From: Escherichia coli | Lineage (GTDB): Bacteria; Pseudomonadota; Gammaproteobacteria; Enterobacterales; Enterobacteriaceae | Length of the DNA: 52,109 bases | Direction: 5' to 3' (one strand) | NCBI RefSeq assembly: GCF_003334815.1 | Contig: NZ_QOWO01000029.1 | Shown here: positions 41,525 through 42,961 of the stretch, piece by piece | Layout of the letters: the number at the start of each line of letters is the position of its first letter | How positions within the stretch are numbered: position 1 is the first letter of the stretch | Made by a program: the position numbers and the translations under genes | The notes under the pieces: generated by a model | The model's input: only the letters and a program-made list of their open reading frames with translations | The model's database searches: none | Told to the model about the DNA's origin: nothing

Positions 41525-42583
41525 TCATGCGGGGGTCTTTTGACGAGCTGCCGCGTCCTGGCGGGAGTGCTCAAGCAGGTTCTGCAAATAATGCAGCGTG
41601 ACTGCAGGGACCAGCGGCGCGATAGCCGTGAGATCGTTTTTCGCCAGCAGTTGACGTACCCGGGAAGCGGATATCGGCATCTCCTGGTAACGCAGCCGCT
41701 CAATTTCAACCAGTTCGATGGGCGGTGCGGAGATAGTCGGCGTTTCCAGCCAGTAGCGCATATCCTGGTTGTACTGGGCGGTAACGCGACAAAAGGGTTC
41801 AGTACCGACAAAGCGGTGAGTTACACCCAGCGCGGGAGCGAGGTACTGACGGAAAATCTTCAGATCAATTTCGGTGTAACAATGGTTAATGACGCTCTGT
41901 TCTTTAATGAAGTAGCAAGGGAACGTAGCGCGGGAGATGATGTATTCGGAGCCACGATGCACAGTCAGGCGTGGAATATCGGCGGTGCCTTTTAACACCA
42001 AATCCAGCCGGTCTTCATAGGGGAAGCGTGAAGAATCTTCTTTGACTAAAAACAGATGCAACCAGTCGCACTGTGCCGCAGCCTGTTGAATCAGATAACG
42101 GTGACCATTCGTAAAGGGATTGGCGTTCATCACAATGCAGCCAATCTTGTTCCCTGGATGACGAAATTTTTTCAGCGATTCGGCATAGCGTTTCAGTCGC
42201 GTGGCGCTGTTTTCCATCAGCACCATCACGCCGGGTACGCTGGTCAGCGTGGAAAAACCGCACTGGTGGAACAGCGCCTCGTATTCGGTTTTGGTATAAA
42301 TAAACAGATGCGTGCTGTGCCGCTCATAGGCGAGGTTTATCAATTCAGTGGCTAATGTCAGCGCCAGTCCTTCACCGCGGACGGATTCACTGATAGCAAC
42401 GCATTTAATAATATTTCCGGCAATTCCACCGCACGCGATAAGCTTTTCATCGCGGGTTACGGTAATAAATACTTCGACTGTGGTGTCAACGCTCAAATCA
42501 TTTTCATGCAGGAATTGGGCGATTTCCGCCATTTTTTTATTTTCTGAACGTTTTACGCGGGTGAAAATATCATTGCCGAACAT
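41525..42583 (-). CDS. citC: [Citrate (pro-3S)-lyase] ligase (352 aa)
   Basis: Start placed at MFGNDIFTRVKR, an internal ATG of the 381-aa track ORF. Confidence 0.88.
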   Translation of the reverse strand: MFGNDIFTRVKRSENKKMAEIAQFLHENDLSVDTTVEVFITVTRDEKLIACGGIAGNIIKCVAISESVRGEGLALTLATELINLAYERHSTHLFIYTKTEYEALFHQCGFSTLTSVPGVMVLMENSATRLKRYAESLKKFRHPGNKIGCIVMNANPFTNGHRYLIQQAAAQCDWLHLFLVKEDSSRFPYEDRLDLVLKGTADIPRLTVHRGSEYIISRATFPCYFIKEQSVINHCYTEIDLKIFRQYLAPALGVTHRFVGTEPFCRVTAQYNQDMRYWLETPTISAPPIELVEIERLRYQEMPISASRVRQLLAKNDLTAIAPLVPAVTLHYLQNLLEHSRQDAAARQKTPA

Positions 42584-42961
42584 AATAAATAGTATCCTGA
42601 AGGTGCATGTTGTTATCGATTTGCAACGAATGTTGTTCAATGTTGCAAACTGATAACCTTTTATTTTCACTTGGGAGAAAGGGGGTGATCGAGGTATATC
42701 TTTTTCTCCTTTCGCTATACATCCTAAGGAGTATTTCGGCGTGAAATTTTGATTTATTTCACATAGAGTTAGTGGTTTTTTATTTATTTAATGATTTTAA
42801 GTTTTTTAATTAATGTAATTACGAAATGACTCGCAGGTTTAAGTGATTTAATTGATTTAATGAATAAAATTTGCCACGATCATAATTAATATCTATGTAT
42901 TTTGATTCAACATTTTAATTACATCCGTCAAAGAGGCTCGGGACAACCCGCAAGGAAAACA
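42584..42961. promoter_or_regulatory. Divergent citC/citA control region with AT-rich direct repeats
   Basis: Very AT-rich, with repeated gatttaattgatttaatg and tgatttatttcaca motifs between divergent operons. Regulatory role is inferred from position. Confidence 0.4.

Follow-up and report, generated by a model that had tools for sequence, protein, structure and literature searches.

Hexamer arrays and a CRP/FNR-type dyad conserved in the AT-rich citC-dpiB spacer of Escherichia coli

The intergenic region between the citrate lyase operon and the genes of its two-component system was analysed in a stretch of 52,109 nucleotides of Escherichia coli DNA, called the window in the following (contig NZ_QOWO01000029.1, assembly GCF_003334815.1; all positions are those of the window). 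The citrate lyase ligase gene citC, the first gene of citCDEFXGT, lies on the minus strand (41525-42583), dpiB (citA) begins at 42962 on the plus strand, thus positions 42584-42961 are exactly the divergent intergenic spacer. A query of 701 bp around the spacer was 100 % identical to the sequence of E. coli K-12 MG1655, where the spacer corresponds to 651,857-652,234 of NC_000913.3 (genome coordinate = window position + 609,273), and among 5426 complete E. coli genomes, 5420 contained this query. An earlier note on this DNA, made from the sequence alone, had described the spacer as extremely AT-rich and as lying between the citrate lyase operon and its two-component regulator. Both descriptions agreed with the data: the GC content was 0.31 versus 0.52 for the whole window, with the lowest values of 0.22-0.23 in 100-bp windows at 42750-42900, and citC and dpiB flank the spacer on opposite strands.

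The earlier note had also listed three strings, gatttaattgatttaatg, tgatttatttcaca and ttaattaatgtaattac, as repeated units. All three exist in the spacer, with starts at 42845, 42750 and 42806, respectively. Each of them occurred only once, however, and they are not copies of one another, thus the label of repeated units was only partly right. Exact repeats were short: GATTTAAT was present twice (42845 and 42854), TGATTTA and ATTTAAT were present three times each. The repeats of the spacer are real, but they are organised otherwise than described. An imperfect repeat connects 42796-42826 with 42838-42868, 24 of 31 positions being identical at a distance of 42 bp; imperfect repeats of 24-31 nt exceeded chance, being equalled in only 0-1.5 % of the shuffled sequences (200-2000 dinucleotide-preserving shuffles per test). 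Hexamers of the type WWYWAA start at 42786, 42795 and 42804 and again at 42846 and 42855, i.e., in steps of 9 bp. What is actually repeated is a unit of about 21 nt, consensus (c)TTAATGGTTTTtATTTnnTTAATTA, of which E. coli carries two copies, 42786-42812 and 42835-42861. The first copy is the conserved core of an array of hexamers, cluster 1, and has the consensus cTTAATGGTTTTtATTTnnTTAATTA; the second, 42 bp downstream, forms cluster 2. As 42 bp equal four helical turns, both arrays face the same side of the helix. The core unit ATGGTTTTTATTTnnTTAATTA was detected in 67 distinct citC upstream regions, from Escherichia to Vibrio. The position profile of these 67 units had a self-similarity peak at lag 9 (0.50 compared to 0.31-0.40 at other lags), thus each unit consists of three TTWAWT hexamers that follow each other in steps of 9 bp. 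The Ewingella unit reads TGGAGTTTATGGAGTTAATT, in which the 9-bp sub-repeat is obvious. In the window, the only other match to a relaxed, mis-spaced pattern of the unit was located at 29692-29712 on the minus strand (TGGTTTTTAAAAGGTTTAATT, three mismatches) and is probably due to chance.

A scan for CitC with one genome per species yielded 80 loci, and the divergent arrangement of citC and dpiB was kept in about 48 of them. Most divergent spacers had a length of 320-390 bp, a few reached up to 556 bp, and the GC contents ranged from 0.21 to 0.42. Mean pairwise identities and invariant positions were determined for seven species of Escherichia, Citrobacter and Salmonella (Table 1). For the spacing, 28 species from five families were aligned without gaps, with site A, a CRP/FNR-type dyad on the citC side, as the anchor. 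Free of gaps, a -10-like hexamer was always located at A-27 to A-22, cluster 1 at A+47 and cluster 2, where present, at A+99. The block AACATTTT was fixed at B+62, where B is the cluster-2 core TTTAATTGATTTAA. This core was invariant in about 30 of the 43 non-Escherichia spacers; cluster 2 was missing in Pragia, Limnobaculum, Leminorella, Pantoea and Erwinia. A lack of conservation in orthologous regions had been named in the earlier note as an observation that would speak against its proposal, but the repeats were conserved and evenly spaced across orthologous loci. This conservation is stronger evidence for the elements than the repeat statistics.

The unit was also observed upstream of citC genes without a divergent dpiB, in Serratia (loci L045, L049, L054, L063 and L081), in Ewingella and relatives (L055, L056 and L059) and in Vibrio (L072-L078). 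In the Ewingella-type loci, it recurs about every 35 bp. A TTGA-N6-TCACA dyad accompanies the unit in those loci of this kind that belong to the Enterobacterales, the Vibrio loci have no such dyad. Two entries among the CitC loci are probably contaminations or mislabellings of public assemblies: a contig of 484 bp in a Terrisporobacter mayombei assembly (L079) was 99 % identical to E. coli citC, and a contig labelled Chryseobacterium sp. 18061 (L032) carries an enterobacterial citC.

Tandem AT-rich hexamers close to a cit promoter and conserved together with the gene are most likely operators of a response regulator of the CitB/DcuR family, and we consider both arrays as candidates for such sites. 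The three strings had been proposed as response-regulator binding sites before, and for two of them the proposal is compatible with the architecture, as they fall in conserved hexamer clusters. gatttaattgatttaatg makes up the 3' portion of cluster 2. ttaattaatgtaattac starts within the 3' end of cluster 1; its TTAATTA was conserved in every family examined, the remainder TGTAATTAC was not. The third string, tgatttatttcaca, is no repeat of the other two: it lies inside site A, a 16-bp CRP/FNR-type dyad at a fixed distance from the presumed citC -10 hexamer.

Site A corresponds at 9 of 10 positions to the CRP core TGTGA-N6-TCACA (TTTGA-TTTATT-TCACA) and is the single occurrence of the dyad in the window. 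Its left half was always xTTGA with the FNR-type base (TTTGAT in E. coli); no species had TGTGA there. The CRP-like right half, TCACA, was kept in most Enterobacterales genera examined, including loci without a divergent dpiB. The dyad sits 22 bp upstream of a TAnGAT hexamer. If this is the -10 hexamer, we infer that citC transcription begins near 42714, with a leader of some 131 nt; site A would then be centred at -41.5, the geometry of a class II promoter, cluster 1 would occupy about -72 to -98 and cluster 2 would lie farther upstream, at about -121 to -147. Possibly the hybrid dyad is purposely maintained as a weak site, to which a CRP-family protein can bind only in company with phosphorylated CitB (CitB~P). 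NarL and NarP recognise heptamers of the consensus TACYYMT, and a putative element of two such heptamers overlaps the -10 hexamer. Its second heptamer was kept in Hafnia and in one Buttiauxella. The block around it was more invariant than a -10 hexamer alone would need, which suggests a nitrate repression of citC via the putative NarL-like element. In the region 42742-42750 of E. coli Ecol_AZ155 (NZ_CP019005.1, L086), a 768-bp IS1 has entered the spacer between 42749 and 42750, duplicating 8 bp of the target. The insertion splits site A and parts the citC -10 hexamer from both arrays, thus this strain has probably lost the citrate induction of citC.

Table 1. Features of the citC-dpiB spacer and of the flanking genes. 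Strand: +, plus; -, minus;., none assigned. Identity, mean pairwise identity; invariant, invariant positions.
Feature	Position	Strand	Remarks	Identity	Invariant
Whole citC-dpiB divergent spacer	42584-42961		378 bp, GC 0.31; RefSeq annotation of the identical MG1655 sequence		
citC	41525-42583	-	Citrate lyase ligase, first gene of citCDEFXGT; RefSeq annotation		
dpiB (citA)	42962-44620	+	Two-component system gene; RefSeq annotation		
dpiA (citB)	44589-45269	+	Two-component system gene; RefSeq annotation		
dcuC	45310-46695		RefSeq annotation		
citC leader	42608-42668	-	Conserved words TGTTGTT, ATGTTG, TTGCAAC, TGATAACnTTTTnTTT		29/61
Putative NarL/NarP-like 7-2-7 element	42718-42733	.	TACATCC-TA-AGGAGTA, overlaps the -10 hexamer; 5/7 + 7/7 versus TACYYMT		
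Putative citC -10 hexamer	42721-42726	-	TAGGAT (TAnGAT in all genera); ATCnTA columns at fixed offset from site A, 28 species		
-10 / NarL-like block	42717-42735			0.93	16/19
Site A	42748-42763	.	TTTGATTTATTTCACA; CRP/FNR-family dyad TTTGA-N6-TCACA; conserved, fixed spacing		
Site A segment	42745-42765			0.95	18/21
Hexamer cluster 1	42778-42819	+	TTTTAT 42778, TTTAAT 42787, TTTAAG 42796, TTTAAT 42805, TGTAAT 42814		
Hexamer cluster 1 segment	42778-42812			0.92	28/35
Hexamer cluster 2	42835-42861	+	GGTTTAAGTGATTTAATTGATTTAATG; second unit copy; hexamers 42838, 42847, 42856		
Hexamer cluster 2 segment	42835-42861			0.85	19/27
Conserved block (C)CACGATC / TAACGATC	42873-42881	.	dpiB side		
ACGATC block	42873-42881			0.88	7/9
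Conserved block AACATTTTAATTACA	42909-42923	.	Fixed +62 from cluster 2		
AACATTTTWATTACA block	42909-42923			0.97	14/15
Segments between conserved blocks	various			0.42-0.58	

On the dpiB side, the blocks at 42873-42881 and 42909-42923 were both nearly invariant and at a fixed distance from cluster 2, and they are unlike a standard pair of -35 and -10 hexamers. AATCTGyAACGAT at the former was kept out to Hafnia, Buttiauxella and Edwardsiella. Each of the two could be part of the dpiB promoter, the site of another factor or the start of the dpiB 5' untranslated region (UTR). The dpiB 5' UTR has been reported as the target of a small RNA. An IHF-like sequence at 42904-42916 was rejected as an IHF site: it was not conserved, and the published region from chromatin immunoprecipitation (ChIP) of IHF lies inside dpiB. 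In the citC leader, a palindrome with arms of 16 nt (42612-42627 and 42642-42657) was restricted to Escherichia, and the fold of the E. coli leader RNA had a z-score of -2.5. A consensus RNA structure was not obtained across 12 species, and a search of the spacer against Rfam gave only matches at chance level; a conserved RNA structure of the leader was rejected on account of the missing consensus and the Escherichia-specific hairpin. The ATGTTG repeats of the leader (42608, 42630 and 42640) resemble ArcA sites. This candidate was dropped, since neither citC nor dpiB is listed in the ArcA ChIP paper or in its supplements.

Published data place several regulators at this locus. The spacer is covered by H-NS in ChIP-chip experiments, with regions at 650481-652224 under anaerobic and 650239-653919 under aerobic conditions (U00096.2; PMC3688515, Tables S3 and S11). 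In window positions, these regions span 41985-43728 and beyond, so that beside the spacer itself the 5' end of citC and the 5' portion of dpiB are covered. The genes citC, D, E, F, X and T responded to oxygen only in the absence of hns and stpA (PMC3688515), citC was expressed only anaerobically (PMC4683798) and citCDEFXGT is regulated by CitA/CitB (PMC3694859). RegulonDB lists a dataset on E. coli CitB/DpiA from genomic SELEX (Yamamoto 2008, PMID 18997424; PMC6094552). In the open-access full-text literature, coordinates of E. coli CitB or DcuR sites were not found. A CitB footprint in the citA-citC spacer was reportedly obtained by Yamamoto in 2008. A deletion of the LysR-type regulator YbdO ('CitR') raises the expression of citC, binding of YbdO to the spacer has not been reported. 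Published sigma-70 ChIP-seq peaks are located inside citC (about 42314) and inside dpiB (about 43327), none in the spacer; in SELEX, the sigma-38 holoenzyme gave a peak where the spacer borders on dpiB (PMC5493296).

The closest parallel is the citC-citS region of Klebsiella pneumoniae (Bott, Meyer and Dimroth 1995-2001), where CitB~P and CRP with cyclic AMP act on divergent cit operons separated by an AT-rich spacer. This equivalent region contains CitB and CRP sites and is activated by both factors (PMC2735749). In the E. coli spacer, the CRP-type dyad would have the same -41.5 centre, with AT-rich repeats upstream. The CRP sites of the Klebsiella citC and citS promoters, studied by Meyer in 2001, are likewise said to be at -41.5. 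The two regions differ in the divergent partner, which in E. coli is dpiBA itself and not citS-oadGAB-citAB. Moreover, a single CRP-type dyad is visible in E. coli, on the citC side and with a left half that is always TTTGA. Among the retrieved loci without a divergent dpiB, from Klebsiella and others, the citS arrangement was not found. A second parallel is formed by the DcuR operators of dcuB, frdA and dctA: DcuR is a regulator of the CitB family, and there, too, AT-rich tandem hexamers precede activator-dependent, anaerobically expressed promoters. Direct sequence similarity to these regions was weak or absent, and the 21-nt unit, the strict 9-bp phasing and the 42-bp duplication are specific to citC upstream regions. 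DpiA itself reportedly binds AT-rich sequences at replication origins, those of pSC101 and oriC, according to Ingmer in 1998 and Miller in 2003. The protein and the preference for AT-rich DNA would be the same, and the TTTATTT-type words of the origins would resemble the unit core; those sites, however, act on replication and plasmid inheritance and not on transcription.

We regard the spacer as the shared control region of citCDEFXGT and dpiBA, equipped with hexamer-array operators, a CRP/FNR-type dyad and H-NS silencing, with a probability of about 0.75. Several results weigh against this assignment. The best repeats of 14 and 18 nt did not exceed chance (p 0.04-0.17). The 9-bp phasing did exceed chance, with three or more WWYWAA pairs at +9 in 0.05 % of the shuffles, but the 9-bp lag was picked post hoc from the data, and since it was chosen after the pattern had been seen, a fair figure is nearer 1 %. 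The best matches of the spacer to DcuR-controlled regions were weak: an AT-rich stretch upstream of frdA matched 42805-42828 at 17 of 24 positions (p about 0.03), dctA reached 17 of 26 (p 0.15) and dcuB gave no match. A scan of 42500-43050 for consensus sigma-70 promoters and terminators detected none, as expected if the promoters are activator-dependent. Regarding site A, the CRP genomic SELEX list and its supplements had no entry for citC or dpiB, FNR ChIP-seq peaks and predicted FNR sites were not found for citC, and the ArcA ChIP data had no entry for the region; a CRP-family protein at site A was not confirmed by any genome-wide dataset examined. The absence from the CRP list does not exclude a CitB-dependent binding of CRP to site A. 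Both the conservation of the dyad and its absence from the binding lists would fit a weak site that requires CitB~P for its occupancy.

It was also considered whether the repeats are a mere by-product of extreme AT-richness, the spacer being an H-NS nucleation and silencing tract, possibly horizontally acquired, without sites for sequence-specific regulators. The spacer indeed resembles H-NS-silenced promoter regions and was counted among them, with its GC content of 0.22-0.31, the H-NS ChIP coverage under both oxygen regimes and the altered cit expression without hns and stpA. In addition to the chance-level 14- and 18-nt repeats, lags of 9 and 42 had an autocorrelation z of about 2.5, which stayed below the cut-off corrected for multiple tests. 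H-NS requires AT-richness and curvature, not an exact sequence. The conservation of sequence and spacing goes far beyond such a need: runs of 14-22 nt were invariant and spaced free of gaps across genera, whereas the adjacent, likewise AT-rich segments varied (0.42-0.58), and the unit recurs upstream of Vibrio citC. Binding of H-NS is also compatible with operators in the spacer and already included in the shared control region proposed here. An origin of the repeats in base composition alone thus appears very improbable.

A different distribution of the regulators is conceivable, in which both arrays, or in any case the dpiB-side cluster 2, serve as DcuR operators, DcuS/DcuR controlling dpiBA and CitB acting only at cluster 1. 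DcuR is said to recognise a degenerate motif of tandem (T/A)(A/T)(T/C)(A/T)AA hexamers, described by Abo-Amer in 2004, and all WWYWAA hexamers of the spacer, with their 9-bp steps, fit it. The frdA similarity points in the same direction, the comparisons with dctA and dcuB were not significant. Scheu reportedly located a DcuR site upstream of citAB in 2012. The clusters are separable in evolution, as several lineages kept cluster 1 but not cluster 2. Both clusters share one consensus, however, so an assignment to different paralogues is not possible from the sequence alone, and at L046, a locus that has no divergent dpiB, two units still occur at a distance of 42 bp. We consider this division of the arrays possible at best, with doubts prevailing. 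That site A is an FNR site conferring the anaerobic induction, and not a CRP site, seems unlikely to us. The left half and its flank, AATTTTGAT, form a perfect FNR half-site, which never reads TGTGA in any species, the expression of citC is confined to anaerobic conditions (PMC4683798), and FNR, too, usually sits centred at -41.5. Nevertheless, most genera have TCACA as the right half, with the CRP-type base, and FNR prefers TCAAA; compared to the FNR dyad TTGAT-N4-ATCAA, site A agreed at 8 of 10 positions and with a CRP-type right half, and the region was not classified as an FNR-dependent promoter. Apart from the lacking ChIP-seq peaks and predicted sites, the published tables contain no FNR-dependent expression of citC, even in the strain without hns and stpA, and the factor of the equivalent Klebsiella region is CRP (PMC2735749).

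For the shared control region with CitB-type operators, the following course of events can be envisaged. The AT-rich tract would be coated and silenced by H-NS. In the absence of oxygen and the presence of citrate, CitB~P, perhaps also phosphorylated DcuR, would occupy the arrays at 42778-42819 and 42835-42861 as tandem oligomers upstream of the promoters, and the array-bound regulator would displace or override H-NS. CitB~P may then aid a weakly binding dimer of a CRP-family protein at -41.5, which would bring RNA polymerase to the activator-dependent citC promoter. Transcription of dpiBA could be served by the same arrays, or by cluster 2 together with the blocks at 42873-42881 and 42909-42923. 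Nitrate would repress via the NarL-like 7-2-7 element over the -10 hexamer.

The feature described in the earlier note is thus real and already known, and the interpretation given there was right in outline and wrong for one of the three units. All regulators proposed here for the spacer have been described before, either at this locus, a textbook one of the best-studied bacterium, or at its orthologue. Possibly new, as a refinement, are the operator grammar at the level of single bases and its conservation out to Vibrio. This grammar would comprise a 21-nt unit of three TTWAWT hexamers at steps of 9 bp, not 10.5 bp, which is duplicated four helical turns away in Escherichia and most related genera examined and accompanied by the hybrid dyad at a fixed distance. 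That it is a grammar of CitB-family operators not yet spelled out is a rather remote prospect in our estimate; if it is true and the studies of Yamamoto 2008 and Scheu 2012 did not define it, a known system would be refined to a modest extent. The cross-species map provides candidate operators at base level and a testable promoter geometry, which is useful for annotation and opens no new question. The spacer decides when E. coli turns on citrate fermentation and, via DpiA, touches the SOS induction by beta-lactams.

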